IMG/VR virus record: IMGVR_UViG_3300035130_000101
Coordinates: 1 to 64,000 of that record
Length of the DNA: 64,000 nucleotides
Origin: a virus
Reading direction: 5' to 3' (one strand)
Shown here piece after piece: positions 5,894 through 19,493 of this stretch (its first letter is position 1; each line of letters opens with the position of its first letter). The notes below the pieces were generated by a model, which saw only the letters and a program-made list of their open reading frames with translations, made no database searches and was not told the DNA's origin. Position numbers and translations under genes: made by a program.

Positions 5894-5895
5894 TC

Positions 5896-6429: not shown

Positions 6430-6832
6430 CTAATGTTCTCCTGAGCCAATATTCGTCTCCCTCGCGGCGTTTGCTCGGTCGCGGGTCACACTCTAATCGG
6501 CTCTCGCTAAAGTCAATCAGGTAGGGATGATTGTCTCTAATCAGGATATTCGGCCTGGTCAGGTCGCCATGCCTGATACCGGCAATCTCCAGAGCTTTGG
6601 GTATCTTGTCAAAATGGTAAGCTAACAGGTCAATGTCGGTTACAGGTGTCTGTTCGATGTGGTGCAAGCGGATTGTCTCTATGTCTGTCTGCTCGGCATA
6701 TGGTACGTAGCCGGAGGGGTAAAGCGTCCTGAGGCACCATATTTCGTTATCGGTCATAAATTTAGGCTGAGTCTTGTAGACCCAAACGCCGTTACCGACT
6801 ATTCTGGATATACCGTTGTCAGAGATAATCAC
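6407..6832 (-). CDS. small kinase-like protein
   Basis: IRHGDLTRPNILI...YLIDFSES resembles the HxDxxxxN catalytic loop plus a DFG-like motif of LPS/aminoglycoside/protein kinases. Confidence 0.5.
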   Translation of the reverse strand: MIISDNGISRIVGNGVWVYKTQPKFMTDNEIWCLRTLYPSGYVPYAEQTDIETIRLHHIEQTPVTDIDLLAYHFDKIPKALEIAGIRHGDLTRPNILIRDNHPYLIDFSESRLECDPRPSKRREGDEYWLRRTLDEIAAIA

Positions 6833-7158
6833 AGTACTTCAAACCATTTACAATAGGTGATTTTACACATAGATTCCAGTTCCAAAAAAATCATTGCTGA
6901 CGAATCACTACTCCCGGCTACTGGATTATGTACTACCTTATCAATAATCCTCACGATCTCACCAATAACGACAGATCCTTTTGTTCCTTTTTGAATGATA
7001 TTAAATTTTGTCCCAATCTCTAATAGAGGTTGAACAGAATCAACTGGGCCAAAAAAGTGTATCTCTCCGTCTTGACATATCAAGTTGACATCAACCGGCA
7101 AAGGCTCCATATCATCAGTAGTGCAAAGATAATAATTTGTATTTAATTCCCAGGTCAT
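6829..7158 (-). CDS. hypothetical protein
   Basis: 109-aa ORF with overlapping stop/start junctions to its neighbours. Confidence 0.45.
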   Translation of the reverse strand: MTWELNTNYYLCTTDDMEPLPVDVNLICQDGEIHFFGPVDSVQPLLEIGTKFNIIQKGTKGSVVIGEIVRIIDKVVHNPVAGSSDSSAMIFLELESMCKITYCKWFEVL

Positions 7159-7205
7159 AATAAACAGTCCTTTTGCTAATTACGTTCATAGATTTTCTAG
7201 GTTGC

Positions 7206-7658
7206 TCATCGCCATACAGAAACATCTGCGGTTGGGTATATTTCACAGGCTTTTAGGTATCTTCTTACAAATTCTACAAGCCCATCATAATCACCCCAAC
7301 CGTTAGATGGATTGAATTGCTTGAACCGTTCGGGGTCGCCCTCAAGTAATGCTAACCCTTTCCGAAGTGGCTCAATCAATTCGCCAGCCTTACTGATATT
7401 GATTTCATCAGGTCGCCATAAATATTGGTATATACCGGCTTCTGAGGCCATTGTGGTAAGATTATGTGTGATATTTGCGGTATAAACTTCTTTGCTATCA
7501 TCGTCGCCAATTTGGGTTATAGCCGGTTCGCACCCTGGGAATTTTTCATTCCATTCATCACGTGAAATCTCTTTTATTGAACCATTTTCACGGATAAAAA
7601 TACCCGACCCAGTCTCGTTCTTTTTATCAGGAAATATTAAGGAAACATCAAGACTCAT
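7206..7658 (-). CDS. hypothetical protein
   Basis: 150-aa ORF, co-oriented with the island. Confidence 0.5.
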   Translation of the reverse strand: MSLDVSLIFPDKKNETGSGIFIRENGSIKEISRDEWNEKFPGCEPAITQIGDDDSKEVYTANITHNLTTMASEAGIYQYLWRPDEINISKAGELIEPLRKGLALLEGDPERFKQFNPSNGWGDYDGLVEFVRRYLKACEIYPTADVSVWR

Positions 7659-7695
7659 TTTTGTACCTTTCCGCCTACAATAATGACATAGAGTG

Positions 7696-8415
7696 TTAAA
7701 TCTTGTAGATTGAGTTTATATGGTCGGTATAGATTTTGTTATAAGAATAGTCATCAAAGTAGCGGTTAATACCATCTGCCTTTTCAGACAGTTCTTTATG
7801 CGGCTCAAGCTCGTGCGTCTCGACAATGACCAACTTTGGCCGGTAACGGTCAATCGAAAAACCGTCAAGCACGTCTATCTCTGCGCCCTCAACATCGACA
7901 ATCAACACTTCAAAATCTGGCTGCCAGTTATGCTTTTCAAGCAGAAAATCGAGCGTCACCATCTCGCACTCGATAAACTTATCGGCATCAAGGCCGCTGA
8001 ATTTCGACCACTCGATACCGTTGTAGATGGCTACCATCTCCGGCTTGATAGTAGAGTTTGAGCCACCGAGGTAGAGCTTGACAGTATCATTCCTTGAGCC
8101 GATGCAACATTGCTCAAGTATTACCCTATCATTGCCTTGATAAAGTTTCTGGCAGTCTGCTATCATATCCGGCTGAGGTTCAACTAAAAGCCCCTGCCAG
8201 CCGGCCTCGATAAGGCAATGCGAATTGCTCCAATTGTAGCAGTTAAAAGCGCCGATCTCCACCACCCTCCCGTCGGTGATGTAGCCGAAATGTGACAGGT
8301 AGATGTCAACGAGATTAGGGACCTGACAGTTAGGGACGTTGATGTATCTCATCTTTTCGTATTTGGTATAACTGAGGCAATGATGACAACGATAAACCAA
8401 AATAGAGCAAACCAT
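7696..8415 (-). CDS. FkbM-family methyltransferase-like
   Basis: The pattern VVEIGAF...GWQGLLVEPQP...LVIVETHE resembles FkbM-type methyltransferases. The start is uncertain; an internal Met lies 21 codons in. Confidence 0.55.
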   Translation of the reverse strand: MVCSILVYRCHHCLSYTKYEKMRYINVPNCQVPNLVDIYLSHFGYITDGRVVEIGAFNCYNWSNSHCLIEAGWQGLLVEPQPDMIADCQKLYQGNDRVILEQCCIGSRNDTVKLYLGGSNSTIKPEMVAIYNGIEWSKFSGLDADKFIECEMVTLDFLLEKHNWQPDFEVLIVDVEGAEIDVLDGFSIDRYRPKLVIVETHELEPHKELSEKADGINRYFDDYSYNKIYTDHINSIYKI

Positions 8416-8420
8416 ATATA

Positions 8421-8430
8421 TCTCAATTCA
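8421..8430. repeat. junction palindrome half-site
   Basis: TCTCAATTCA; 5 nt from ATG 8415. Confidence 0.3.
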
Positions 8431-8528
8431 CCAGTCACCATCATTCATAAGCCTATCGTGGCAGACAAAAAACTGACGATCATTACAATAGACCAGACAA
8501 AATAAGCATATTTCGATGTCACTTTTTC

Positions 8529-8542
8529 TCAATTCAAATTGA
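8529..8542. repeat. junction palindrome
   Basis: TCAATTCAAATTGA; contains the stop codon of the aminotransferase gene (..FNLN*). Confidence 0.55.
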
Positions 8543-9659
8543 AAAAATCTCTAAACTTTTCAACGATGTAGGATAGGTCATTCAGGTTAAGCCCCTGGTG
8601 GCAGCCAATATATAGCCCGTTTCGATTCACCCAATCTGCCACCGGGTAATCGTCCGGCTCCCACAGCCCCTGGTAACACGGCTGCCGAGTCAGCGGCAGG
8701 GCCAGCCTTGATTCAATGCCGTTCTCTGCCAGGAATCGCCGCAGGTTGTTCCTTGTGCCTTCTTGCCGACAAACGAGCGGGTACATCTGAAAAGCGTGTT
8801 CTGAGTGTGACCGGATAGCCGGCAATTGTAGCCGGTCCTCAAGTGACGCTAAATGCTCTGTCAGATAGGCGGCGTTCTCTTGCCGGTGGCTGATAATTTC
8901 CGGTAGATCGTCCAGTTGCGCCAGACCCAGCGCAGCCTCAAGTTCAGTCATCCTAAAGCTATGGCCCACTCGCTTGAAGTCAAATTTGCGCCCAAGCCAG
9001 GTATGATCGTAATGCTGGCCAGTCGGTAGCTCATTAAGGTCAATTCCGTGGTTGACCAGTGACCGCATATAGAGTGCATATTCGGGATTGTCGGTAATAC
9101 CCAGGCCGCCAACTCCGGTCACAAGGATATGAGCCATATAGGTAGAGAAACAAGAAATGTCACCAAACGAGCCAACTGGATAACCAAAGCGGGTGACAAG
9201 CATCGCCTCGCAGGAATCCTCTATGACCTTGATCTTGCTGCCGTAGATAGCAAACGGGGCAACCGTCCGGCTCAACTCATCTATGGCGCTGGCTTGTCCA
9301 AAGATGTGGACCGGGATAATGCACTTGGTATTCTCGTTGATTGCCGCTTCGATCTTGGTGTAGTCAAGATCATAGTACCGGCTATCCACGTCAACCAGTA
9401 CCGGCTTTAATCGCAAGTGCAAAACGACGTTGACCGTAGCCACAAACGTAATAGCTGGAATGATAACCTCGCTGCCGTCCGGCCAGCCGTGCATCTCCTT
9501 TAGCGTCTGCAAAGCCACCAAGAGCGATGACGTGCCGCTATTGGACAATACTCCATACTGGCAATTGTGCATCTGAGCAAAGCGGGATTCGAACTCTCTC
9601 GACATCTGACCGTAGGACAACCGGCCGGTATCTAAAACCTGATTGACCAATTGTTGCAT
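8529..9659 (-). CDS. DegT/DnrJ/EryC1-type PLP-dependent sugar aminotransferase
   Basis: LSYGQMSREFESRFA...NSGTSSLLVAL... is the typical family pattern. Start taken at the internal ATG 9659, 1 nt after the upstream stop; the track ORF extends to 9749. Confidence 0.8.
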   Translation of the reverse strand: MQQLVNQVLDTGRLSYGQMSREFESRFAQMHNCQYGVLSNSGTSSLLVALQTLKEMHGWPDGSEVIIPAITFVATVNVVLHLRLKPVLVDVDSRYYDLDYTKIEAAINENTKCIIPVHIFGQASAIDELSRTVAPFAIYGSKIKVIEDSCEAMLVTRFGYPVGSFGDISCFSTYMAHILVTGVGGLGITDNPEYALYMRSLVNHGIDLNELPTGQHYDHTWLGRKFDFKRVGHSFRMTELEAALGLAQLDDLPEIISHRQENAAYLTEHLASLEDRLQLPAIRSHSEHAFQMYPLVCRQEGTRNNLRRFLAENGIESRLALPLTRQPCYQGLWEPDDYPVADWVNRNGLYIGCHQGLNLNDLSYIVEKFRDFFNLN

Positions 9660-9660
9660 T

Positions 9661-10485
9661 TTAGGCGTAGCTTGGAATGTCCCAAGTGCTATTTTGTTCA
9701 AGGCTCTTCTCCTGAAAAGCCCAGGTAGAAGGCCGGAACAGGTTGTCACCCGTCATAATAATTTGTTTGCCGGTATATTCTTGCATAACAGACCTGATGT
9801 CATTCAGGTTTTTTATCCTGGTTTCAAGTTCTTCATTATCTGATTTCTCAATACCAAATGAGGCCGATTCATAAGCAAGACCGTTACATTCGATATAGCG
9901 GAACCGTTCAGCAATGAGAAGCCATTCAGCGTCAACGCCTGCGCCGTTTGCTGTTGATTCAGCTACAATTTTTTGAGCCACTGGTCTGGAAAGCCCACGA
10001 GAGCCTGATAGTATATCTACATTGTAGCCAAAAAGACGATTGCACTCCAACTCGGTAATTCTTTGCAATTCGGGGTGGGTATTAAATGCCTGTTCGGTTC
10101 GGCCAAAAACAACGAAATCGTATAGAGGAATGTGATTTACTACACTTCGCAATTCATCGGGATAATTGATTATCCAGTAAAGCACTCTGTCAAAATCGCA
10201 ATAATGAAAATGATCGGCTTGAGTTTGCAATCCGAAATTGATACTCATTCTTCGAGCCTGAGCCAAGCCACCCATAGCTTGGACTTTGGCAGCCTCACCT
10301 AGTAAGTCAATTACCTTACCGTCTGTAGTATCCGTCACGACAACAACTATGCTGTCATATATTCGCTGCAATTCAGGCAGATATAATGAGATAGCGTCGA
10401 TGAGCTTTCCATCAGAATCGTGAAGGGCTGATAAAAGAGTGGTCACAATAAAGCCCTTTTTACTACTTCTTTTGTCTGTCCTCAT
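9661..10485 (-). CDS. hypothetical protein
   Basis: 274-aa ORF within the sugar island; no motif recognised. Confidence 0.55.
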   Translation of the reverse strand: MRTDKRSSKKGFIVTTLLSALHDSDGKLIDAISLYLPELQRIYDSIVVVVTDTTDGKVIDLLGEAAKVQAMGGLAQARRMSINFGLQTQADHFHYCDFDRVLYWIINYPDELRSVVNHIPLYDFVVFGRTEQAFNTHPELQRITELECNRLFGYNVDILSGSRGLSRPVAQKIVAESTANGAGVDAEWLLIAERFRYIECNGLAYESASFGIEKSDNEELETRIKNLNDIRSVMQEYTGKQIIMTGDNLFRPSTWAFQEKSLEQNSTWDIPSYA

Positions 10486-10673
10486 TTATTACATCGATAT
10501 AGATAGTGATAGTTTATGTAGTTGAATTTAGTATTTTTGATTTCTTCTTTAGAGGGAACGTCTGAAACCCAATCGTCAATCTCTTGCCAATTGTGCCTAC
10601 ACTTTTTCACGAATAGAGATCTTATCTTGTTCATAGCGCCCCAATGTATCTGAGTAGCACAATTACGACCCAA
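10482..10673 (-). CDS. hypothetical small protein
   Basis: 63-aa ORF; overlaps 10631..10819, so one of the two may be spurious. Confidence 0.3.
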   Translation of the reverse strand: MGRNCATQIHWGAMNKIRSLFVKKCRHNWQEIDDWVSDVPSKEEIKNTKFNYINYHYLYRCNK

Positions 10674-10819
10674 ATAAAAAATGCTGTAAGTCCCAGGCCG
10701 ATTATCAGGGATATTACTCCACCGACAATTGAGGCTATTTTTATCCGCCTGAAATCTCTATCGAAATCATCTGACATTTTTTGAAACCGTTTATCAAAGT
10801 CACTCATAATCCAAACCAA
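10631..10819 (-). CDS. small transmembrane protein
   Basis: 62 aa with a C-terminal hydrophobic helix (IASIVGGVISLIIGLGLTAFFIWVVIVLL). Confidence 0.4.
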   Translation of the reverse strand: MVWIMSDFDKRFQKMSDDFDRDFRRIKIASIVGGVISLIIGLGLTAFFIWVVIVLLRYIGAL

Positions 10820-11531
10820 ACCTTTCCTTCAATTCCTGTCTGTCTGTCATCTTCAGTCCCGGTATCCCGCTCCGGTCGTGATAGTTCCATTGCCCCCGTT
10901 GGATGACGTTGACGTGCCGCAGCGGAGCCTGCCGGGTGCCGAGTACCAACCAATCGGGGTGGTTGTTTACCCTGCCAGCCATCTCTATCTGTTGGGCCGT
11001 TTCACCGGGGACAAGCACCTCTCTCAGTAAGTCTCGCCGCCACATTCCACCCCAGAGTGACATATGGTACTGGCTATTCGGGTCGCTCTTAATCAGGTCG
11101 AGATAGCCCAGAGTATCATAGGTATTGTAGCCCCAATAGAACTGATTGTAGCCTTCTGGTGGCGTGCCTGAGTAAAGCCGCTCATCAGCCAGGTCGAACT
11201 TGAGAACGTTGGTATACTGGTGCATATAGTCGTAGATCATCTGGACGGCTTTGGTGTCAACGGGACGGGAAAGAAAATAATCATCGAGCATAAGGATAAA
11301 GACTTCATCGGCTACGGTGTCCAGTACCTTTATGAGTGCATCGCTCCATTTGTTGGCCGGGTAATTTTTGAATTTGCCGATAGAGTAGAAATTGGAATCA
11401 CACTCAATTCTGGTATAGCCGCAAGTCAGGCGAGTATGCTCAAGTCCGTTAAAATATTTGGTCCACTGATACCAAAAGGGGGGAATAGTCCACTGCTGAT
11501 TGTCGCTGGTCATTACAATTACTTGTATCAT
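10800..11531 (-). CDS. hypothetical protein (possibly glycosyltransferase-like)
   Basis: 243 aa. MIQVIVMTSDN...FILMLDDYF is weakly GT-A-like. The guess rests on context only. Confidence 0.5.
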   Translation of the reverse strand: MIQVIVMTSDNQQWTIPPFWYQWTKYFNGLEHTRLTCGYTRIECDSNFYSIGKFKNYPANKWSDALIKVLDTVADEVFILMLDDYFLSRPVDTKAVQMIYDYMHQYTNVLKFDLADERLYSGTPPEGYNQFYWGYNTYDTLGYLDLIKSDPNSQYHMSLWGGMWRRDLLREVLVPGETAQQIEMAGRVNNHPDWLVLGTRQAPLRHVNVIQRGQWNYHDRSGIPGLKMTDRQELKERFGLDYE

Positions 11532-11594
11532 CGGTTCCTCTACAAAAAATATCCGGGTCTCTGTATGCCGGATGGGATTAAATGTTGTTATCGG

Positions 11595-12494
11595 TTACGT
11601 TCCTTTGTTTCCTCTATACCATTCTATCGTTTGCCTTAACCCATCTATCAGCGACGTTTCCGGCTGCCACCCTAACAGTGACTTAGCTCGGCTATTATCA
11701 TATAGCCGTCTTTTCTCACCAGTAGGCTTTGTCTTATCCCAGGCGACGGTGCCATCGAAACCGGTCAACTCAACCAATAAATCAACCAACTCAGCAATCG
11801 ACACCTCTTGATTAGACGAGATATTGACCGGCTGACCCACGTCGGTATCAATGAATTTGGACAGGGCCTTTGCCACGTCACCAGCATACAGAAAATCTCT
11901 AGTAGCCTTGCCGTCGCCCCAAATGGTAACAACCTCTTTGGCCTCGATAAACTTACGTACCAAGGCAGCTATGACGTGGCCGCTTTCTCCAAAGTTGTCT
12001 CTTGGACCATACATATTAACCGGAATAGGATACTCAAAAGCCATCCCGTACTGCTCGCGGCAGGCTTCCAGTTGCGCCAGGGCCACCCGCTTACTAATGC
12101 CATATGAACCATTAGACTTTTCAGGATAGCCACTCCACAGGTTGCCCTCTTTCATCGGCAATAGCGGAAAGTCAGGATAAGCGCAAACCGAGGAGACAAA
12201 CACGAACTTCCCGACGCCAATCTCAGCACACTTCTGGATAAGCTGAGTATTCATCATCACATTGTCATAATAGATGCTGGCCGGGTTTGCCATATTGTAG
12301 GAAATGCCGCCGACGTTGGCCGCTAGGTGGTAGACGATATCGGGCTTGACAAAATGATCGAAAAGGGCATCAATATGATCATGTTGCCGCAGGTCATAGG
12401 CGCGGGATAGAACGGGGTAAACGTCGTGGTCACTTAAGAGGGGGTAGAGATGGCTGCCAAGAAAGCCAGCGGAGCCGGTCAGGAGTATCTTCAT
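11595..12494 (-). CDS. NAD-dependent sugar epimerase/reductase (SDR, GDP-fucose-synthase-like)
   Basis: Rossmann motif LLTGSAGFLGSHL and catalytic YGISK (YxxxK). Start taken at ATG 12494, with a GAGGA RBS and an ATGA overlap with the upstream stop. Confidence 0.8.
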   Translation of the reverse strand: MKILLTGSAGFLGSHLYPLLSDHDVYPVLSRAYDLRQHDHIDALFDHFVKPDIVYHLAANVGGISYNMANPASIYYDNVMMNTQLIQKCAEIGVGKFVFVSSVCAYPDFPLLPMKEGNLWSGYPEKSNGSYGISKRVALAQLEACREQYGMAFEYPIPVNMYGPRDNFGESGHVIAALVRKFIEAKEVVTIWGDGKATRDFLYAGDVAKALSKFIDTDVGQPVNISSNQEVSIAELVDLLVELTGFDGTVAWDKTKPTGEKRRLYDNSRAKSLLGWQPETSLIDGLRQTIEWYRGNKGT

Positions 12495-12673
12495 TGCCGT
12501 TTCCTCATTGCCAGCCATACCTCATCGGCCGTCGGCTTGCGCACTTTTTCCGCCGCCAAGTAGGTTTGCAGAATCCAGACGATATGCGCCGTCTTGCTAC
12601 GCTGTGCTTTTTGGGCGCTGGCGGTTAGTTGGGTATTGAGTTTATCGGGTAAGCGTAGGGTGAAGCGGGTCAT
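12491..12673 (-). CDS. ribbon-helix-helix (CopG/Arc-like) protein
   Basis: MTRFTLRLPDKLNTQLTASAQKAQRSKTAHIVWILQTYL shows the beta-alpha-alpha pattern. Confidence 0.65.
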   Translation of the reverse strand: MTRFTLRLPDKLNTQLTASAQKAQRSKTAHIVWILQTYLAAEKVRKPTADEVWLAMRKRQ

Positions 12674-12679
12674 TTTTTC

Positions 12680-12693
12680 TCAATTTCGGTTGA
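12680..12693. repeat. junction palindrome, variant
   Basis: TCAATTTCGGTTGA; 6 nt after stop 12700 and 6 nt before ATG 12673. Confidence 0.5.
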
Positions 12694-12699
12694 TATTTT

Positions 12700-12999
12700 C
12701 TAGCCGTAGCCGTAGCCGTCGCCGGAGCCGTAGCCGTAGCCGTCGCCGGAGCCGTAGCCGTCGCCGGAGCCGTAGCCGTCGCCGTAGCCGTCGCCGTCGC
12801 CGGAGCCGTAGCCGTCGCCGTAGCCGTCGCCGTAGCCGTAGCCGTAGCCGTCGCCGGAGCCGGAGCCGTAGCCGTCGCCGGAGCCGGAGCCGTAGCCGTC
12901 GCCGGAGCCGGAGCCGTCGCCGGAGCCGTAGCCGTCGCCGTAGCCGTCGCCGGAGCCGGAGCCGTAGCCGTCGCCGTAGCTAATCAATGCGCTGTCCAC
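12700..12999 (-). CDS. Gly-Tyr-Ser-Asp repeat protein (low complexity)
   Basis: 99 aa made almost entirely of GDGYGS-type repeats. Its start overlaps the stop of 12984..13274. The mirror plus-strand frame encodes RS repeats. Confidence 0.55.
   Translation of the reverse strand: MDSALISYGDGYGSGSGDGYGDGYGSGDGSGSGDGYGSGSGDGYGSGSGDGYGYGYGDGYGDGYGSGDGDGYGDGYGSGDGYGSGDGYGYGSGDGYGYG
12703..12975. repeat. imperfect tandem repeats (GCCGTAGCCGTCGCCGGA-type, 6/18-bp units)
   Basis: Visible run of GCCGTA/GCCGTC/GCCGGA hexamers encoding GYGDGS repeats on the minus strand. Confidence 0.85.
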
Positions 13000-13274
13000 T
13001 CTGGAACCTCCTCAATCGACTGCCGGGCTTTCGGCGTACAATCCAAAATCTCAATGGCTTCGGTCAAAGTGACCAAAGTGACAGCGACGGGGAATTTGCA
13101 ATCATTGGGCTTGCTTACTCCCCGAACGGCCAACTCAGATAATGAGGCTGCCCCTGACCAGTACCACAAGCGTCGGGCATTGGTCAAAACGACTTCCTTA
13201 CCATTCCGGCTTTCCAATTCGCCTGCAAAAACACCGGCGCTGTACGTTCTGACAATTACATACTTCTTGTCCAT
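12984..13274 (-). CDS. conserved phage protein of unknown function
   Basis: 96 aa with YSAGVFAGEL...NARRLWYWSGAASLSELA. AGGGAG RBS; preceded by a promoter and the palindrome motif. Confidence 0.6.
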   Translation of the reverse strand: MDKKYVIVRTYSAGVFAGELESRNGKEVVLTNARRLWYWSGAASLSELAVRGVSKPNDCKFPVAVTLVTLTEAIEILDCTPKARQSIEEVPEWTAH

Positions 13275-13306
13275 TGTTCACTCCCTTTCTATCTGTCTGA
13301 TTATTT

Positions 13307-13320
13307 CAATTGCGGTTAAT
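13307..13320. repeat. junction palindrome, variant
   Basis: TCAATTGCGGTTAA; lies between promoter 13347-13376 and ATG 13274, so it is transcribed. Confidence 0.55.
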
Positions 13321-13346
13321 ATTTCTATAGGAAACAAGCCTATCTC

Positions 13347-13376
13347 ATTATACACCACCTTGACACCATTTGTCAA
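13347..13376 (-). promoter_or_regulatory. sigma70-type promoter
   Basis: On the minus strand: TTATTGACA, 18-nt spacer, TATAAT. Confidence 0.55.
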
Positions 13377-13380
13377 TAAG

Positions 13381-13414
13381 AAAAGCCGCCGGCCCCGATA
13401 CACCGACGGCTTTT
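13381..13414 (-). terminator. rho-independent terminator after the recombinase-like gene
   Basis: AAAA GCCGCCGG ..loop.. CCGACGGC TTTT. The stem is perfect, with one G-U pair, in the minus-strand RNA. Confidence 0.55.
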
Positions 13415-13487
13415 CCTTCGATCTTTGCAGCGCCCGGCGCGCCTGAACGTGGACGTTGCTAATAGGAAGTGAACCGATTCCATTGTA

Positions 13488-14144
13488 TCACAGGTGGTTA
13501 CGTGTGTCAACACATCTCATATACCTGGCAATTGTGCCGGACTTGAGACCGGTTAGCTCGCGCACTACTGCCGGTCCGTCATCCTCTAATCGGTGAACAA
13601 TGCCAGACTGATAGATCGTCATCGCTGTTACCGGCTTAGTGATTTCCTGTTCCCTAGCCACCCTTTTGATATGGTTAGTCAGCGTAGACACGGACGTATG
13701 TCCACCTCTGGACACTGACTTTTTAACAATATCTCCCGGTCTGGTCAAGTTATGATAAGCCTCTCTGGCTAAAATCTGATAAAGTAATGGTAAGCCAGTT
13801 ATAACCGCCTTTACCTGCCCCCGGCTTATAGTCTCTACCAGTTTTGTTTTGTGCAGAGTTGATACCATCCGAACTTCGACGGGCTTTCCAATGTCATCAA
13901 AAAACATACTAATCGCCCGCTTCGCTTGGTTGGTAGTAGATCGGGAGTATTCGCCGGGCCGGACCATCCAGGCCAAATACTCGTCAATATGCCATTGCTC
14001 AAGCTCGGATAATTTGATCGGAGCGTGAAATTTGGCAAGCTCGATTATCCAGCGGGAATAGAGCCGGACGGTATTTTTGGACAGGCCCGCAAAGGCGCTG
14101 TCTAATTTTTGTTGTAACTCATTTGATGGTTTCATATTTGACAT
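13488..14144 (-). CDS. short tyrosine-recombinase-like protein (SAM-like N-domain; catalytic signature incomplete)
   Basis: 218 aa. The N-terminus (TVRLYSRWIIELAKFH...IDEYLAWM...YSRSTTNQAKRAISMFFD) looks like an integrase core-binding domain. LTRPGDI (box I Arg) and ARY (Tyr) can be placed, but HxxR and the Lys hairpin cannot be found by eye. Confidence 0.6.
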   Translation of the reverse strand: MSNMKPSNELQQKLDSAFAGLSKNTVRLYSRWIIELAKFHAPIKLSELEQWHIDEYLAWMVRPGEYSRSTTNQAKRAISMFFDDIGKPVEVRMVSTLHKTKLVETISRGQVKAVITGLPLLYQILAREAYHNLTRPGDIVKKSVSRGGHTSVSTLTNHIKRVAREQEITKPVTAMTIYQSGIVHRLEDDGPAVVRELTGLKSGTIARYMRCVDTRNHL

Positions 14145-14165
14145 TATAGCACGTTTTGGTATAAT
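14138..14165 (+). promoter_or_regulatory. sigma70-type promoter directed into the cassette array (Pc-like)
   Basis: TTGACA (14138-14143), 16-nt spacer, TGG-TATAAT (14160-14165). The -35 overlaps the recombinase-like start codon. Confidence 0.65.
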
Positions 14166-14193
14166 ATCAAGTAAGATATAGTGTTATGATATT

Positions 14194-14202
14194 GTTAGAT
14201 TG
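14194..14202 (+). repeat. attI-like core box GTTAGATTG
   Basis: Matches GTTRRRY and lies 2 nt before ATG 14205. Its complement (8/9) opens the first repeat at 14404. Confidence 0.5.
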
Positions 14203-14204
14203 CT

Positions 14205-14411
14205 ATGGTTTATCTTGGTTACGTTTACGATGAAATGTCATACTGCCCGGAGTTGGTTGGTGTGTTTGCCACCAAACCTGCCGCTTACCGTGCAGTTAGA
14301 AAACGGATCAAAGAGATGATTATAGAGCATTGGGAGTGTTGGGCGGGAGGACGATACCGCCACGATTACCATTTTACGTGGCGTATTAAACCCGTTGAAC
14401 CAGCAACCTAA
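14205..14411 (+). CDS. cassette ORF 1 (68 aa, unknown)
   Basis: ORF track. The stop TAA lies inside box CAACCTAAC. Confidence 0.6.
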   Translation: MVYLGYVYDEMSYCPELVGVFATKPAAYRAVRKRIKEMIIEHWECWAGGRYRHDYHFTWRIKPVEPAT

Positions 14412-14491
14412 CAACGGCTTACAGCGGACGGATTGACCTGGCCGTTTACATCGACCGCCCTGGCCGCCGCTGAAGCCGGGGCGTTATACGG
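14404..14491 (+). repeat. attC-like site 1 (88 bp)
   Basis: R'' CAACCTAAC, R' GTTATACGG. Arms 14415-14431 and 14464-14478 pair 15/15, with bulged A14421 and A14428. Confidence 0.7.
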
Positions 14492-14521
14492 CACGTTGCC
14501 AACAGAGTCCGGAGTAATTGT

Positions 14522-14896
14522 ATGTGGTACAAAAAATACCCTAAATTAAATTCAGCACTATTCACGTATGAGAATAGTGGCAAGCGGAGCAACGACCCGC
14601 CCCCGTATTCGTTAGTTGAGCGTGGTGGCGAACTGATAGACATTGAAGATAAATATTCGGTGTCGGGCTACAAAATTTTAGGCTACACGGAAAGCCCGCC
14701 GTTCCCGGCAGAAGGGTATCCAGCCGTAGCTGTCCTTTTTGAAAATCAATCGTTTGAAAAAATTTGGTGGCACTATCCCTGTAATGAGCCGTATAACAAT
14801 CAAAATGCAGGGGACGCCCCAAGCTCGATTTTACAGCCGCCTAATCTTGTGGCTCCAAGTCGGAGTAGGCGGCGAACTAATAAAACGCGCCCCTGA
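14522..14896 (+). CDS. cassette ORF 2 (124 aa, unknown)
   Basis: GGAG RBS. The last ~36 codons run into attC-like site 2. Confidence 0.55.
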   Translation: MWYKKYPKLNSALFTYENSGKRSNDPPPYSLVERGGELIDIEDKYSVSGYKILGYTESPPFPAEGYPAVAVLFENQSFEKIWWHYPCNEPYNNQNAGDAPSSILQPPNLVAPSRSRRRTNKTRP

Positions 14897-14914
14897 TTTT
14901 GGGGCGTTAGGCGG
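14789..14914 (+). repeat. attC-like site 2 (126 bp)
   Basis: R'' CCGTATAAC is the exact complement of 14483-14491; R' GTTAGGCGG. Arms 14801-14817 and 14887-14901 pair 15/15, with bulged G14807 and A14814. Confidence 0.7.
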
Positions 14915-14941
14915 ATTGCCGCTAGAAAAGGAGTTGATCTT

Positions 14942-15229
14942 ATGAATGATGTAGATAGGCGACTGATGCAAGACAAACAAGACCAGCTTTTGGCCGTGGC
15001 GAAAAAAGCGATGGTTCAACAGAAAGAAATCAACGAATTGCATCAGGCATTAACGCGAATCGCATCGTACGATACCCCCGACGAGATACGCCAAGACGCG
15101 GCTGATGAATATGGCCTAGATTACGAAGAAGCCTTGGAAATGGCCTATGAAAACATTATCCAGGAGGCCAAATCAATGCTTGGCAAATATCCCCCTAACA
15201 AGCCGGTGGAGCCGACCGGACAATCTTAA
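14942..15229 (+). CDS. cassette ORF 3 (95 aa, acidic, unknown)
   Basis: AAGGAG RBS. The C-terminal ..YPPNKPVEPTGQS is encoded by the left arm of attC-like site 3. Confidence 0.6.
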   Translation: MNDVDRRLMQDKQDQLLAVAKKAMVQQKEINELHQALTRIASYDTPDEIRQDAADEYGLDYEEALEMAYENIIQEAKSMLGKYPPNKPVEPTGQS

Positions 15230-15278
15230 TTTTCAAGACCAGGCCCAGGCCGGCGGCTCACCGGCGGGCGTTAGGCGG
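15191..15278 (+). repeat. attC-like site 3 (88 bp)
   Basis: R'' CCCCCTAAC, R' GTTAGGCGG. Arms 15202-15219 and 15250-15265 pair 16/16, with bulged G15208/9 and A15215. Confidence 0.7.
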
Positions 15279-15303
15279 CTTCGCTGCGAAAGGAACAATC
15301 GAA

Positions 15304-15723
15304 ATGGGTACGTATTGGGATGGGAATGGAAAGTATCAAGAATGGTCAGACAAACTCGAAGATCAAGTCCCTATGTCTGGCCGGGCTGAAAAATTGCACA
15401 TTGATCTAGTGCGTAATATCAGCAATTGTTATTATGACCACTTCAACAATGGTAACTGCAATTGGGGGAACAAAAGCGAACAATTTGCACACATCGAATA
15501 CCACGCCGATGCACTTCACGAAGCAGCACTGGCCGAAGGCATTGAAAATATCCGTAGTTTACTGTCGTCTATTCGTTCCCCGTTGGACGCTGATTTTGCA
15601 AAAAATTTGTTTTACTGCGGCGAAGATGCAGAGGACTTGGAAGAAAATTGGGAAAAGCTGGCAGATATTATTATCGGTTGGGCGTGGAAGGTTGAGCAGT
15701 CTTTACCAGTACCAGCCGCCTAA
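15304..15723 (+). CDS. cassette ORF 4 (139 aa, unknown)
   Basis: AAAGGA RBS. The stop TAA lies inside box CCGCCTAAC. Confidence 0.6.
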   Translation: MGTYWDGNGKYQEWSDKLEDQVPMSGRAEKLHIDLVRNISNCYYDHFNNGNCNWGNKSEQFAHIEYHADALHEAALAEGIENIRSLLSSIRSPLDADFAKNLFYCGEDAEDLEENWEKLADIIIGWAWKVEQSLPVPAA

Positions 15724-15844
15724 CAAAAAATTGTACCCGAATTGCTACTGTTCGTTTCAACAACGGCCACACGCTGGCAATCTCGGTTTAAATTGCGGCT
15801 CTTAACGCCAAGCCGCAATCGGGTAAATTTAGGGCGTTAGCTGG
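15716..15844 (+). repeat. attC-like site 4 (129 bp)
   Basis: R'' CCGCCTAAC, R' GTTAGCTGG. Arms 15728-15745 and 15815-15830 pair 16/16, with bulged G15733 and A15740/1. An inner hairpin lies at 15792-15819. Confidence 0.7.
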
Positions 15845-15870
15845 CTCATTGCCAGTGGAGGCGAGTGGAA

Positions 15871-16059
15871 ATGCTAGAATGTCCTGATTGCAAAATTCCG
15901 TTTGAGGTGGTAAGAATACATCGCCGCCACCAGACTGCTTTTAAAAATATGAATGCCGCTGTGAAATGGTGTCCGTTTTGTGGTCGCCAGCTAACAAAGC
16001 AATTCAAGCGGACTGAGCAACCGTCACAGTCCGATCAATCATTAGAGTCTGCCGCTTAA
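15871..16059 (+). CDS. cassette ORF 5 (zinc-ribbon-like, 62 aa)
   Basis: CPDCK...CPFCG. ATG 15871 with a GGAGG RBS; the track starts at GTG 15865. Confidence 0.55.
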   Translation: MLECPDCKIPFEVVRIHRRHQTAFKNMNAAVKWCPFCGRQLTKQFKRTEQPSQSDQSLESAA

Positions 16060-16075
16060 TTGCGGCGTTAGGCGG
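15987..16075 (+). repeat. attC-like site 5 (89 bp)
   Basis: R'' CCAGCTAAC is the exact complement of 15836-15844; R' GTTAGGCGG. Arms 15999-16013 and 16051-16063 pair 13/13, with bulged C16005 and A16012. Confidence 0.7.
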
Positions 16076-16080
16076 ATAAA

Positions 16081-16293
16081 ATGATAGAAAACTACATTTG
16101 TATCGAACAACGGAAACGGATTGGTAGTATCGTTTACGACGATGTCATACTCGAACTAGAACGATTTGCAGATAGGATAGAAATAGAGATGTCGAACAGT
16201 GACGATCACAATGTACATATTAGGATAAATATTGAGCAGGCAAAAAAGTTAGCTGAGTTCATAGGCGGTTTTGTTGGTATGGTATCCGCTTGA
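16081..16293 (+). CDS. cassette ORF 6 (70 aa, unknown)
   Basis: The ATG is 5 nt after box GTTAGGCGG, which can serve as the SD. Confidence 0.55.
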   Translation: MIENYICIEQRKRIGSIVYDDVILELERFADRIEIEMSNSDDHNVHIRINIEQAKKLAEFIGGFVGMVSA

Positions 16294-16359
16294 CTTTACG
16301 CCGCAGGGTCGTTCACCCGCCACGGCCCTGGCAGCGGCACAACGGCGGGTGTTAGGCGG
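16286..16359 (+). repeat. attC-like site 6 (74 bp, degenerate)
   Basis: R'' CCGCTTGAC (7/9), R' GTTAGGCGG. GC-rich imperfect hairpins lie between them, with no clean two-bulge pattern. Confidence 0.4.
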
Positions 16360-16364
16360 ACAAA

Positions 16365-16580
16365 GTGGCAAAAATATATGGTGTGACAAAAATACATTTT
16401 CTGGCAGAGCCATTAGTGATAATTGGCGAGAAAAAGATGACGTTGGAAATGGCAGAACGTTGGCTTGCCAGAGAACACGGTGAAAATGCAGAAGTAGACG
16501 CAATCAATTGCACATCAATATATGATGACCGTGATTATTATATTTTGGGGATTGTAGAAAATAGCAACCAATCCGCCTAA
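16365..16580 (+). CDS. cassette ORF 7 (71 aa, unknown)
   Basis: GTG start 5 nt after GTTAGGCGG. The stop TAA lies inside CCGCCTAAC. Confidence 0.5.
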   Translation: MAKIYGVTKIHFLAEPLVIIGEKKMTLEMAERWLAREHGENAEVDAINCTSIYDDRDYYILGIVENSNQSA

Positions 16581-16701
16581 CAAATCGTTCGTAGCGAATT
16601 GCTAACCTTGTTTTTTATTGTGGTCGGTTGGGGCCACTACCGCACATTAACCCGCAGGCATTGTGCCAACCCGCAATCGCCACAACTCAAGCGTTAGGTG
16701 C
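16573..16701 (+). repeat. attC-like site 7 (129 bp, paralog of site 4)
   Basis: R'' CCGCCTAAC, R' GTTAGGTGC. Arms 16587-16602 and 16673-16686 pair 13/14, with bulged C16590 and A16597. Confidence 0.65.
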
Positions 16702-16705
16702 TTGT

Positions 16706-16993
16706 ATGAAAAATCCACGGTGGTTAATGGTAACAAGAAAAATCACAGATGGTTTAGTGCTGGTTTGGTCGCCGGAATGCAATGAGCAATTATGGGCGTT
16801 AGGTAACAGGCCAGGATATAAACATCACAATTGCGCTATCTGTAATAGAGAAATTCCAAAAAATACAGAAAAAATGTACAGACCTGTGGGAAATCCACGC
16901 AATAGAATGTGCAGAATTTGCCAAGACTGCGCTTTGATGAACCACCCACCTAACAAACATTTGCAGCCCGACCCCGACAGCCGCCGCAAATGA
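16706..16993 (+). CDS. cassette ORF 8 (Cys-rich zinc-finger-like, 95 aa)
   Basis: ATG 4 nt after GTTAGGTGC. HHNCAICN...CRICQDC. The C-terminal ..HPPNKHLQPDPDSRRK is encoded by the attC-like arm. Confidence 0.55.
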   Translation: MKNPRWLMVTRKITDGLVLVWSPECNEQLWALGNRPGYKHHNCAICNREIPKNTEKMYRPVGNPRNRMCRICQDCALMNHPPNKHLQPDPDSRRK

Positions 16994-17068
16994 GACGGCT
17001 GCGGGCGTGGGCACATCGGTATCAAGCGAGCCGCCGCAGGCGGGCGGCTGAAATGTGGCGTTATATGG
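16946..17068 (+). repeat. attC-like site 8 (123 bp)
   Basis: R'' CCACCTAAC, R' GTTATATGG. Arms 16957-16968 and 17046-17056 pair 11/11, with bulged G16963; pairing is irregular beyond that. Confidence 0.6.
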
Positions 17069-17080
17069 CTAGGAGGAAAA

Positions 17081-17329
17081 ATGATCTACGACGGACTGCT
17101 GGTTTACGGTGACAATTTCAATCCAGGTGCCGTTTGTCCGCATTACCTGCCAGAGAGCCAATACACTTTTACGTGGTATCGCAACGAGGACGGTATCCCG
17201 GTTTTGAGCGGTTACGATCCTAAAGATGATTTGGCTACAGATTGGCTTTGTGTGTGCGGCCACTATGAAACTGGAGGCTGCTGCTGTAGGCACTGTGGCG
17301 CTGAACCGCCGTGGGGCTGTATGTGCTAA
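17081..17329 (+). CDS. cassette ORF 9 (Cys-rich, 82 aa)
   Basis: AGGAGG RBS; CVCGHYETGGCCCRHCGAEPPWGCMC. Confidence 0.6.
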   Translation: MIYDGLLVYGDNFNPGAVCPHYLPESQYTFTWYRNEDGIPVLSGYDPKDDLATDWLCVCGHYETGGCCCRHCGAEPPWGCMC

Positions 17330-17332
17330 CAG

Positions 17333-17442
17333 CCATATAACAAACATTTGCAGCCGACCGCCCAGGCTGCGGATAACGAAGATCAAGCGCAATCATAGTC
17401 ACATTTCACCGTGGGCGGCGGCTGAAATGTGGCGTTACTTCT
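17333..17442 (+). repeat. attC-like site 9 (110 bp, paralog of site 8)
   Basis: R'' CCATATAAC is the exact complement of 17060-17068; R' GTTACTTCT. Arms 17344-17364 and 17412-17430 pair 19/19, with bulged G17350 and A17357. Confidence 0.7.
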
Positions 17443-17443
17443 T

Positions 17444-17689
17444 ATGCAAAACAAGCAAAAATATTCAGCGCGTCAAATTATACCACCTCAGTTAACAGAT
17501 ACCGATAAAGAGCGATTTATCACAAATAGCAAGGCTCATATGTTGTTCGACCTGGCTATAAAACTGGCTGACAAAGGCGACGAACTTACAATTGAGGTAA
17601 AATTTGAGGAATATAAAACCAAACACTATGACACACCCTGGCTGAATGAAAGCCGGGTTGATATGGTTGCGTGGGTAACAACCCCGTAA
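17444..17689 (+). CDS. cassette ORF 10 (81 aa, unknown)
   Basis: ATG 17444; the track starts at GTG 17429, inside site 9. Confidence 0.5.
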   Translation: MQNKQKYSARQIIPPQLTDTDKERFITNSKAHMLFDLAIKLADKGDELTIEVKFEEYKTKHYDTPWLNESRVDMVAWVTTP

Positions 17690-17738
17690 CCTAACAAATC
17701 ATTCAAGCGGAATTGCTGATCTTGGTTTTTATTGCGTC
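17682..17738 (+). repeat. attC-like site 10, left half only (truncated)
   Basis: ..GTAACCTAACAAATCATTCAAGCGGAATTGC.. matches the left arms of sites 5 and 7. No right arm or GTTRRRY box follows. Confidence 0.45.
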
Positions 17739-17746
17739 AGTTATAG

Positions 17747-17775
17747 TTGCTAAATAACAGTATTGGAGGTATAAT
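17747..17775 (+). promoter_or_regulatory. sigma70-type promoter
   Basis: TTGCTA, 17-nt spacer, TATAAT. Confidence 0.55.
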
Positions 17776-17780
17776 AACCG

Positions 17781-17860
17781 TGTTCAGGATAGCATAACTC
17801 AATGGGCGCATTTTTTATTTAACGTGGCCCCCATCGGCTAAAAGAGTGCTATCCTGAACA
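17781..17860 (+). promoter_or_regulatory. structured 5' leader (14-bp perfect inverted repeat)
   Basis: TGTTCAGGATAGCA (17781-17794) pairs with TGCTATCCTGAACA (17847-17860). It starts at about the predicted TSS, upstream of 17905..18300. Confidence 0.4.
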
Positions 17861-17904
17861 AATAGCGCCGGCCGGTGGGGGTCTCCATTTTTAAGGGAGG
17901 AATA

Positions 17905-18300
17905 ATGATATACTTTAGATCAAGAAAATATAAGTCTACCTTTAATTGTTCCTTTATGGCAAAAGATGGCCAAAACATTGATGATTTGTCAAGGTGTCAG
18001 ATAGGCGATTCAGTATCAATTATATTCGACATTCCGCAGAAAATTGCAGACATGGTAAGTGAGAGTGGGCTATCTGATAGTGCTGGAATACGCATTTACA
18101 AAGATAATAATACTTATTCAGTTCATATTCCATTCAAGATAATCGAGCGTGATCATTCGTTCTCTTGGAATGATATCGGCACTTTACAAACCCTAGGAAC
18201 ATCAATTTACGTTGAGGCAAAAAGCGGATACTGGGAAGATATGTTCAAATGGATATGCCTGAATGAAAGACCAATATGGGCAGTGGAAGATGAACAATGA
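17905..18300 (+). CDS. hypothetical protein
   Basis: AAGGGAGG RBS before ATG 17905. ATGA overlap with the endonuclease gene. Confidence 0.55.
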   Translation: MIYFRSRKYKSTFNCSFMAKDGQNIDDLSRCQIGDSVSIIFDIPQKIADMVSESGLSDSAGIRIYKDNNTYSVHIPFKIIERDHSFSWNDIGTLQTLGTSIYVEAKSGYWEDMFKWICLNERPIWAVEDEQ

Positions 18301-19493
18301 AACGTATCTTCACTATCGAACAGGACAAAGAAGTTGCCGAGCTATACCAGCAGGGAATGTCATCTATCAAGCTCGCCGAGCAATATGGCGTTGACAAGTC
18401 AACGGTCTTGGGGGCGTTGAAACGGCAAGGGATAAGGCGGAGAACTAATAGAGCCTTTACCAGAGGTGAAGAGCAACAGATAGCTCACATATATCAAGCT
18501 GGACACAAGATAACGGACATTGCAAAAGCGTATGGCTATGATTTCACTACTATTAAAAATGCCCTCAAGAGACAAGGAGTTAAGCAAGGGGATGACCGGT
18601 TTACTTTTTCGGCCACACAAGAAAAGGAGATACTTGAAGAGTACAAATCTGGAAACAAGATGGCCGATATTGCAAAAAAATATCAGGCATCCCCAGGAAC
18701 AATATCTAAAGCGATAACCAATCAGGGTGGCAAGGTCAGAGACGGACGCATCTTTACTGATAGCGAAGAAGTAATGATAGGCCACATTTACGAATCCGGC
18801 TTTAGCCCTCAGCAAATTTCAGTGGCGTATGGCGTATCACGTAGCGCAATTATAAATACAATAGATAGACGTGGGATTGATAAGCGCCCTAACAGAAAAA
18901 ACTTTTTTGACGAAAAGGCTTTTGATAGTCTTGACAGTGAAGCCCCCCTATATTGGCTTGGCTTTTGTTATGCCGATGCCAATGTAACTAACTATGAACT
19001 CAGGATTGGACTTGCTATCAAGGATATAGATCACTTGCAGTTACTGGGAGATTTTATGCAAAGTGATAAGACGGTAAAAAAATATCGAAATAATACAGCT
19101 TGTCAATTGAGCTTTGCTAGCGTGTATCTTACAAAAAGGTTGCACTCATTAGGATTGATAGCAGGTAGAGGTGAATTTGAAAAGCTCGTGCCGCATATTC
19201 CCGATAATCTGGCTCATCATTTTATTCGCGGATATCTTGACGGTGACGGCTGCATTACTGAAAGTAATTATCTTATCAGATTTCTAGGGCAAGTTGATAT
19301 ACTGGAATGGATTAGAAATATCCTTCATAGTAATGCAGGTGCTAGCAATTCCGTTTCTATTAAAAAACGGAGGGGCATCTACAGTATTGGATGGGGAGGC
19401 CGATATCAAGGTCCTAAAATAATAGACTATCTTTATAAAAATGCGACTATATATCTCGATAGAAAAAGAAAAGTAGCAAGAAGTTGGAAATAA
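18297..19493 (+). CDS. LAGLIDADG homing endonuclease with four N-terminal HTH repeats
   Basis: Motifs LYWLGFCYADANV and HFIRGYLDGDGCI. There are four ~49-aa repeats (F(T)..E...Y..G....IA..YG....TI..AL.RQG). Confidence 0.8.
   Translation: MKRIFTIEQDKEVAELYQQGMSSIKLAEQYGVDKSTVLGALKRQGIRRRTNRAFTRGEEQQIAHIYQAGHKITDIAKAYGYDFTTIKNALKRQGVKQGDDRFTFSATQEKEILEEYKSGNKMADIAKKYQASPGTISKAITNQGGKVRDGRIFTDSEEVMIGHIYESGFSPQQISVAYGVSRSAIINTIDRRGIDKRPNRKNFFDEKAFDSLDSEAPLYWLGFCYADANVTNYELRIGLAIKDIDHLQLLGDFMQSDKTVKKYRNNTACQLSFASVYLTKRLHSLGLIAGRGEFEKLVPHIPDNLAHHFIRGYLDGDGCITESNYLIRFLGQVDILEWIRNILHSNAGASNSVSIKKRRGIYSIGWGGRYQGPKIIDYLYKNATIYLDRKRKVARSWK

Follow-up and report, generated by a model that had tools for sequence, protein, structure and literature searches.

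We analysed a row of inverted repeats in a 64,000-nt stretch of viral DNA (IMG/VR record IMGVR_UViG_3300035130_000101, positions 1 to 64,000; this whole stretch is called the window below). The repeats are very probably genuine integron attC sites that bound a cassette array. The two unpaired bases on their left arms are the canonical extrahelical bases of attC sites, and the geometry is textbook and already known. The unusual point is that an array of ten cassettes lies in a tailed phage beside a conserved, shortened relative of the integron integrase IntI without catalytic residues. We call this relative, encoded at 13488..14144 on the - strand, mini-IntI.

The sites are listed below with their outer cores and unpaired left-arm bases (positions in brackets are counted from RYYYAAC).

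14406..14489, + strand: attC 1, ACCTAAC...GTTATAC; A14421 (position 16) and A14428 (position 23)
14791..14912, + strand: attC 2, GTATAAC...GTTAGGC; G14807 (position 17) and A14814 (position 24)
15193..15276, + strand: attC 3, CCCTAAC...GTTAGGC; G15208 (position 16) and A15215 (position 23)
15718..15842, + strand: attC 4, GCCTAAC...GTTAGCT; G15733 (position 16) and A15740 (position 23)
15989..16073, + strand: attC 5, AGCTAAC...GTTAGGC; C16005 (position 17) and A16012 (position 24)
16288..16357, + strand: degenerate attC, inverse core GCTTGAC (TTGAC), R' GTTAGGC; read from the sequence
16575..16699, + strand: attC 6, GCCTAAC...GTTAGGT; C16590 (position 16) and A16597 (position 23), by eye
16948..17066, + strand: site 8 of the original prediction, ACCTAAC...GTTATAT; G16963 (position 16), one C of 16967-16969, and A16971 (position 24)
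17335..17440, + strand: site 7 of the original prediction, ATATAAC...GTTACTT; G17350 (position 16) and A17357 (position 23)
17689..~17745, + strand: truncated attC, left arm only, ACCTAACAAATCATT[C]AAGCGG[A]ATTGC; related to attC 6

Each left arm was aligned with the reverse complement of its own right arm. The alignment reproduced all bulge coordinates of the original prediction, that is, the seven pairs of unpaired bases in attC 1 to 6 and in the site at 17335, and G16963 in the site at 16948-17066, which was likewise recovered by the geometry scan described below. The left arms share one order: the TAAC core, 2-3 unpaired nucleotides, 6 bp, one unpaired base, 6 bp, an unpaired A and further stem. 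A scanner for this geometry (AAC, 1-7 nt, 6 bp, 1 unpaired, 6 bp, 1 unpaired, 3 bp, the complementary arm and GTT) tolerated at most 2 mismatches in 15 paired positions and required the flanking AAC and GTT. It found seven sites in the 64-kb window, all on the + strand within 14405-17436, and no match outside this range on either strand. In 12 first-order Markov simulations of the window, 0-1 matches were obtained (mean 0.25). The claim that the left-arm bulges lie 6 bp apart, with A as the second, was thus borne out by both the alignment and the scan, with 7 sites against about 0.25 expected per 64 kb. When the distance between the bulges was varied from 3 to 9 nt, four window sites showed zero mismatches at 6 nt and at most one site did so at any other distance; this spacing scan is weak, since with 2 mismatches allowed the bulge can slide and adjacent spacings score too.

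The bulges stand at positions 16/23 in five window sites, at 17/24 in two and at 16/24 in the single site with three bulges. The inner bulge is A on the top strand in all eight bulged sites. Read on the bottom strand, the bulges are an invariant T with C, G or T 6 bp nearer the recombination box, so that the layout is T-N6-C in four sites (plus the three-bulge site), T-N6-G in two and T-N6-T in one. The core boxes xxxTAAC...GTTRRRY are in the correct inverted order in all eight complete sites, and an internal loop is present in every window site.

Some details of the original prediction needed amendment. In the site with C16590 the bulges stood, but there is an A16593-C mismatch, and outside the first bulge the stem has just 3 bp (GTT/AAC). 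For site 8 it had stated that the first bulge is kept. G16963 is indeed unpaired, but the second bulge (A16971) is kept as well and an extra C is unpaired, which makes this site a three-bulge variant. Finally, the sites that it listed were all found, but the inventory was incomplete, and we added the degenerate site at 16288-16357 and the truncated one at 17689-~17745. The degenerate site is without left-arm bulges, carries extra bases on the right arm and was missed by the geometry scan.

We examined covariation in arm-only constructs of 17 sites from the window, related phage contigs and bacterial metagenome-assembled genomes (MAGs). Compensatory changes occurred in 19 of 22 stem pairs, and the covariation score was 0.654, compared with 0.17 for column shuffles and 0.08-0.14 for slid partners. 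Since the 17 sites had been pre-selected for pairing, the covariation is informative and the percentage paired is not. The proposal that structure rather than sequence is conserved agrees with these values. The inner unpaired column was A in 16 of the 17 sites.

Extrahelical bases have been mapped in known attC sites. They lie near L'': one, at position 16, is usually G on the bottom strand, and the farthest, at 23 or 24, is a conserved T (Nivina et al. 2016, PMC5027507). Efficient recombination needs a 6-bp stem between the extrahelical bases, and some sites have a third base between them (PMC5027507). The preferred layout is T-N6-G or T-N6-C (Larouche and Roy 2011, PMC3053210). As a positive control we used the 60-nt aadA1 attC, which about 2,000 plasmid records contain at 99% identity or higher. 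The copy in plasmid R100 is flanked by aadA1 and qacEdelta1 and adjoins intI1; the same analysis gave C16 and A23 on its top strand, 6 bp apart. Because the published layout and the aadA1 control share the register of the window sites, the geometry is textbook. The original prediction had equated the bulges with the extrahelical bases by which IntI chooses the strand, and their canonical positions and the aadA1 control uphold this. It had also supposed that the 6-bp spacing might depart from classical attC sites, which is incorrect: T-N6-G/C is canonical, and aadA1 itself gives 16/23.

The window sites resemble classical attC sites (aadA1/aadA7 and the VCR of Vibrio cholerae) in the RYYYAAC and GTTRRRY cores, the imperfect palindrome and the variable centre. 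They also share two single-base bulges (three in one site) on the R''/L'' arm at 16 and 23/24, the 6-bp stem and the inner T on the bottom strand. As in classical arrays, each site follows a small promoterless open reading frame (ORF); the window sites are 84-125 bp long. They are unlike classical sites in that the helix from the R box to the first bulge is mostly 6 bp, which leaves a short unpaired centre, their first bottom-strand bulge is in most cases C (T-N6-C) where G is usual, and they are carried on a phage. In classical integrons, the asymmetry of the bulges restricts binding of the IntI tetramer to the folded bottom strand, to the exclusion of the top one. The extrahelical bases also fix the orientation of the cassette, so that it enters in one direction behind the promoter. 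That all ten ORFs of the array face away from the promoter fits this role.

Two features weigh against the attC identity. First, in the seven window sites scored by the scan the unpaired centre measures just 2-3 nt on the left and 3-4 nt on the right, whereas 5-6 nt is usual; in the site at 16575-16699 it is about 5 by 6 nt, the classical length. This shortening is the sole structural departure from the textbook geometry that we noted. Second, the canonical fold is not the minimum free energy (MFE) structure in three of the six window sites scored. In the folding check that had been proposed, run with DNA energy parameters, the sites at 14406, 15193 and 17335 had the two-bulge hairpin as their MFE structure whichever strand was folded; those at 14791 (0.5-0.6 kcal/mol above the minimum), 15718 (2-3 kcal/mol) and 15989 (about 4 kcal/mol) did not.

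We also considered that the hairpins, rather than being recombination sites, might be repeats with a regulatory or structural role between genes, for instance terminators, RNA stability elements or REP/MITE-like elements. They do lie between ORFs on the transcribed strand, and a few overlap terminator-like matches on the opposite strand. However, these matches are no more numerous than in shuffles, the RYYYAAC/GTTRRRY cores are in the right inverted order, and the one-arm bulges occupy canonical positions that match a verified class 1 attC. No Rfam family matches the hairpins either: a search over 13000-19000 gave a chance long non-coding RNA match alone, and Rfam holds no attC family. In addition, the same repeat family adjoins a full-length IntI in a Caldilineaceae MAG. 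We regard this explanation as very improbable.

Having set the regulatory reading aside, we treat the repeats as attC sites of a cassette array. The array runs from 14195 to about 17745 on the + strand and comprises ten co-oriented cassettes with one small ORF each (64-139 aa). Every ORF is followed by a site, and several stop codons lie inside R''. The cassette ORFs, taken from the ORF list, are as follows.

14205-14411, 14522-14896, 14942-15229, 15304-15723 and 15865-16059, + strand: cassette ORFs 1-5
16081-16293, 16365-16580, 16706-16993, 17081-17329 and 17444-17689, + strand: cassette ORFs 6-10

Comparison of these ORFs with Pfam, PADLOC and PHROGs gave no assignment beyond weak zinc-ribbon and Lar-like matches for 15865-16059. 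The truncated attC at 17689 is the end of the array, and no right arm matching it was found within the window.

Upstream of the first cassette lies a compact platform with the following parts.

14138-14165, + strand: promoter into the array, TTGACA-16-TGnTATAAT, a 12/12 sigma-70 match, like the integron promoter Pc
14170-14143, - strand: promoter into the mini-IntI gene, TTGATA-16-TATAAT, an 11/12 match
14176..14200, + strand: attI-like junction (..GTGTTATGATATTGTTAGAT), presumed crossover at G14194|TT
13488..14144, - strand: the short IntI-derived protein mini-IntI, 218 aa from the first ATG

Both promoters lie within an inverted repeat at 14132-14176. They stand back to back in a 20-nt inverted repeat in which each -10 box overlaps the other's -35 box. 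An identical database protein begins at ATG 14135, which gives 215 aa; if mini-IntI starts there, the - strand promoter would yield an almost leaderless mRNA.

A platform of about 70 nt is kept in 10 lineages whose proteins are as little as 25% identical. In these 10 platforms the motif consists of CAT (the complement of the start codon)..TTGACATTATA..TATAAT, followed at the same place by GT(T/A)ATTATATTGTTAGG. At the junction itself GTTATNATATTGTTAGG is conserved, and past this sequence the related platforms part from one another. The window and its related locus L001 (related loci are designated by L numbers) can be aligned up to ATATTGTTA and are unrelated beyond. Divergence right after GTTA is the pattern that an attI crossover at G|TT would produce, and from this pattern we predict an attI-like site at the junction.

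We next describe mini-IntI itself. Its N-terminal part is a SAM-like core-binding domain, and of the catalytic domain a reduced, helical remnant is left. The NCBIfam integron-integrase model TIGR02249 scored it at 46 bits, against a cut-off of 265, over profile positions 12-125 only, and Pfam gave Phage_int_SAM_4 only. The sole sequence match in the PDB was VchIntIA (2a3v), which aligned in two separate blocks (22-118 of mini-IntI with 19-118, and 143-190 with 235-282). Alignment by hhalign with five IntIs that pass the cut-off gave a probability of 99.4% and a gap over IntI columns 134-234. The columns missing from mini-IntI hold the GLRLxE arginine (Arg I), the beta-hairpin Lys and the IntI-specific insert; relative to VchIntIA, the absent segment is that aligned to about 119-234 (about 100 residues). 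Arg II and His III are replaced (RHSFAxH by xQSGIVH and LLGH by xxGL), and the protein ends about 10 residues past the tyrosine. In VchIntIA, W157 of beta-sheet 2 contacts the extrahelical G (PMC2095811), and this beta-sheet falls in the part deleted from mini-IntI.

An AlphaFold2 (AF2) model built on a 19-sequence alignment was all-helical, with a predicted local distance difference test (pLDDT) score of 92.4, and its best Foldseek match in the PDB was again 2a3v. An earlier AF2 model from 3 sequences (pLDDT 58) was discarded in favour of the 19-sequence model. Mini-IntI is thus like IntI (VchIntIA, PDB 2a3v; TIGR02249) in that IntI is its best match in both sequence and structure, and the core-binding domain, the last catalytic helices and the position of the tyrosine align. 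It is unlike IntI in being short of Arg I, the beta-hairpin Lys and the IntI insert, with the Arg II and His III motifs replaced. It appears to be an IntI derivative rather than a normal IntI, and apparently non-catalytic. We know of no tyrosine recombinase that works without the Arg pair.

Two phage regulators with a recombinase fold and no catalytic activity, YopR of SPbeta (PDB 8bj6) and SroF of phi3T (PDB 9rd5), were both in the Foldseek list of mini-IntI. Unlike mini-IntI, they are unrelated to IntI and are without attC arrays, and the matches are weak (E about 0.2, TM score about 0.3-0.45). YopR and SroF act as repressors and provide a precedent for a recombinase fold that serves as a DNA binder without recombination.

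Compared with the 76%-identical L001 homologue, the mini-IntI gene has a ratio of nonsynonymous to synonymous substitution rates (dN/dS) of 0.13 at a dS of about 1.3, similar in both halves. To judge from these rates, the gene is under purifying selection and functional. We rejected a frameshifted intI pseudogene in view of the dN/dS, the uniform length of the family and the lack of remnants resembling IntI in the other frames.

When 1.84 billion representatives were searched exhaustively with HMMER, about 20 full-length homologues were obtained, all of 183-236 aa. Among 19 family members, only N72 and Y130 are invariant, and Y29, A77, S95, Y122, I182, H184 and Y208 are nearly so. No Arg or Lys column is invariant in these 19, and H184 is at a non-catalytic position. 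Usable flanks were available for the window/L002, L001, L004-L006, L007, L008, L024/L033, L029, L030, L031 and L032, and all of these members have a divergent array of small genes upstream and a phage-like context. Phage genes flanking the family arrays encode portal, terminase, Mu F, HK97 gp10-like and DnaB proteins. The strict scanner found attC sites with the same bulges in seven lineages (window/L002, L001, L007, L008, L024/L033, L030 and L032), and attC sites were recognised by eye in L004, one of them with R' ATTAGAG.

The family alignment is too divergent for a peptide-pattern scan. Scans of metagenome and genome contigs with peptide patterns gave no close mini-IntI relatives, a scan of viral contigs gave the L001 contig only, and further scans of viral contigs with distant family members gave none. 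In the literature searched, which includes PMC9892861 and of which coverage was incomplete, no account came up of a conserved family of short IntI derivatives that has its own platform next to phage attC arrays, a negative that amounts to absence of evidence and no more.

Given that catalytic residues and the bulge-contact segment are missing from mini-IntI, it is a poor candidate for reading the bulges, and a host IntI is the likelier reader. The original prediction had put forward the 13488-14144 product as a possible bulge reader, which we consider doubtful: the protein is without the W157 segment and the catalytic Arg/Lys/Arg/His. We propose instead that a full-length IntI from a Chloroflexota host would read the folded bottom-strand bulges during infection. 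Mini-IntI would be a non-catalytic DNA binder (an adaptor, a regulator or a structural subunit) that would not recombine DNA itself and whose place of action would be the promoter palindrome or the conserved attI-like site. This pairing of a host IntI as enzyme with mini-IntI as accessory is the reading towards which we lean, tentatively and with slightly less than an even chance.

Several points count against it. Recombination was seen nowhere in the analysis, no IntI was found in the 64-kb window, and no other ORF in its six frames matches the IntI hidden Markov model (HMM). The host assignment rests on an attC family found in MAGs, with no host-phage link. Moreover, attI sites are normally recognised by their cognate IntI only (PMC2095811), so a host IntI working on the phage attI-like site would need an adaptor or would have to be unusually tolerant. 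The tight conservation of the attI-like site alongside the mini-IntI gene is equally compatible with action of the short protein at that site.

The last point leads to the possibility that mini-IntI is itself a miniaturised, structure-reading recombinase, with a C-terminal tyrosine and a non-canonical active site, that carries out exchange between attC and the attI-like site. The gene is always directly divergent from the array and is co-conserved with the attI-like site and promoter in 10 lineages, down to 25% identity; purifying selection is strong in both halves; Tyr208 and His184 are nearly invariant; the fold is closest to VchIntIA; no other tyrosine recombinase was found in the window; and attI is normally integrase-specific (PMC2095811). 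Yet the protein lacks both catalytic Arg residues, the beta-hairpin Lys and His III, and across the family not a single Arg or Lys is invariant. The deletion takes in the region whose residue touches the extrahelical G in VchIntIA, and the protein stops about 10 residues after the tyrosine. We consider such an enzyme unlikely.

The assignment of the enzyme to a Chloroflexota host, as in the host-IntI reading, comes from attC 6. This site (16575-16699) belongs to a highly conserved attC family of about 125 nt (loci L009-L021). Its right-arm 20-mer CCCGCAATCGCCACAACTCA had 13 matches in the genome collection, 11 of which were titled as Chloroflexota MAGs; the groups named in the titles were Caldilineaceae, Anaerolineales, Anaerolineae, Promineifilaceae and Chloroflexia. 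The full attC with its bulges aligns in most of the MAG matches, and the same 20-mer also occurs in five viral stretches. In one Caldilineaceae contig a full-length IntI lies about 3.7 kb from a site of this family. On the strength of these alignments, the attC family is common to these phages and Chloroflexota chromosomal integrons, and it points to Chloroflexota as the probable host group. The sedentary integrons of Chloroflexota (Caldilineaceae MAG JAGRCP010000015, L018) are like the window in having the same attC family with the same bulges; unlike it, they are chromosomal and have a full-length IntI (in L018 at 3771-4715). What can be read of the L018 platform bears no relation to the phage platform, but part of it is masked and the comparison is uninformative.

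Cassettes were compared among the related phages. Cassette 2 (14484-14906), which consists of the 124-aa ORFan 14522-14896 and attC 2, has a counterpart of 88% protein identity in L024/L033 (L024 1110-1500; L033 6011-6400), whose mini-IntI is just 35% identical to that of the window. The DNA homology sets in at most a few bases ahead of the previous R' core (GCGTTATAC) and is lost gradually about 10 bases past the cassette's own R' core (GTTAGGYGGATT). It is thus confined to the stretch between the two R' cores, at a resolution short of the crossover base. The shared cassette is at a different array position in L024/L033. In addition, the arm sequences of attC 4 (15718-15842) recur in L024/L033 behind a different ORF. 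These alignments indicate that cassettes are exchanged between phages, with homology limited to the stretch between R' cores. Phage L001 has four attC sites with the same bulges and different cassettes, and the comparison of the two platforms indicates cassette turnover between related phages at the attI-like junction.

Such turnover bears on whether the array is a fossil, that is, a piece of a host chromosomal integron with a decaying intI that was gained by illegitimate recombination, in which the bulges persist by descent and nothing recombines. Captured phage CALINs (clusters of attC sites lacking integron integrases) and integron fragments are documented (PMC9892861), one window site is degenerate (16288-16357), the last is truncated (17689-), and the integrase-like gene is internally deleted relative to IntI. 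The substitution rates (dN/dS 0.13 at dS about 1.3) and the uniform length of the family (183-236 aa) do not agree with decay. Furthermore, related phages share the platform and have different cassettes, diverging a few bases after GTTA; a cassette recurs between R' cores at another array position in a distant phage; and the stems covary while the bulges are fixed. We judge a fossil origin improbable.

The comparison with captured elements can be made directly. Qi et al. (2023, PMC9892861) documented phage CALINs and integron fragments captured from hosts, and five of the six phage attC sites that they tested, which were other sites than those of the window, recombined with IntI1 (PMC9892861). 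Under the CALIN definition of that study (at least two attC sites and no nearby gene that the IntI model recognises), the window qualifies with 9 or 10 sites and no gene positive with the IntI model, and IntegronFinder would presumably call the array a CALIN. A complete integron is not recognised in it, as there is no full-length IntI (46 bits for mini-IntI vs 265). The window is like the phage CALINs in having attC-bounded cassettes in a tailed phage and no gene that passes the IntI model. It is unlike them in its complete-looking platform (promoter, attI-like junction and IntI-derived gene), which recurs in at least 10 phage-like lineages.

It is also possible, though on the doubtful side, that the locus is a distinct phage variant of the integron, with a platform of back-to-back consensus promoters, a conserved attI-like site and an IntI derivative of about 200 aa without the catalytic residues. 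The short protein would then take a direct part in capturing cassettes, which the phage would obtain from the integron pool of its Chloroflexota hosts. Its role could be that of an adaptor that guides a host IntI to the phage attI-like site, of non-cleaving subunits in a mixed tetramer or of a non-canonical enzyme, and the canonical bulges would keep phage and host cassettes interchangeable.

The bulge geometry adds nothing new in itself; its value is that it certifies the phage repeats as real attC sites compatible with ordinary integron integrases. Until now, reports of integron parts in phages have concerned captured fragments or clusters without an integrase, and here they form a recurrent, selected platform with a shortened, apparently non-catalytic IntI relative. 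If the short protein aids capture, cassette pools would flow between bacteria and viruses by way of a dedicated phage device. If this is true, mini-IntI would also be a minimal IntI scaffold provided by nature, with which DNA recognition could be studied apart from catalysis. The ORFan cassettes may be of interest as well: weak Lar-like, Mom-like and DNA methylase hints point to anti-defence cargo and, if so, the arrays would be a place to seek new counter-defence genes. These hints comprise a faint Mom-like first cassette (L033 7250-7930), an N6/N4 DNA methylase cassette (L007 2430-3065), an Acb5 gene near one platform (L030 3408-3656) and the weak Lar-like zinc-ribbon of the window (15865-16059).

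The genome that carries the array is that of a tailed phage. Among the genes of the window are those for a large terminase (28291-29931), a tape-measure-like protein (53700-57044) and Dit-like and Gp37-like tail proteins; others encode an HNH endonuclease, a DNA methylase, a DnaC-like loader and a replisome organiser. Its closest relative is on an 82.5-kb IMG/VR viral contig, and a similar-DNA search of GenBank phages gave one irrelevant 127-nt match. A bacterial chromosome with a prophage beside an integron is unlikely, as phage genes lie on both sides of the array and the synteny recurs on viral contigs. Matches to PHROG families of the terminase large subunit were strong for 28291-29931 (1e-31) and weak for 46767-48026 on the - strand (1e-4).

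On the strand of mini-IntI and after its gene, 1312-12518 (-) holds a cluster of glycosyltransferases, an NAD-dependent epimerase and an aminotransferase. In relatives, such sugar-modification clusters add methyltransferases and a sulfotransferase (L004 11057-16600; L033 9331-16615), and distant relatives show the same succession of array, short gene and sugar-modification cluster. The ORF at 12700-12999 (-), directly downstream of a DUF6948 gene (12984-13274), encodes 99 aa made almost entirely of GDGYGSG-type repeats, and its mirror ORF at 12594-12983 (+) encodes RSRSRRR repeats.

Directly after the truncated attC, 17781-17860 contains an inverted repeat whose 14-nt arms match perfectly (TGTTCAGGATAGCA / TGCTATCCTGAACA) and stand 52 nt apart, and a 10/12 promoter-like match is found at 17747-17775. 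Just past the end of the array, 18297-19493 (+) encodes a 398-aa protein with at least four tandem helix-turn-helix domains, and an identical gene is present in L002.

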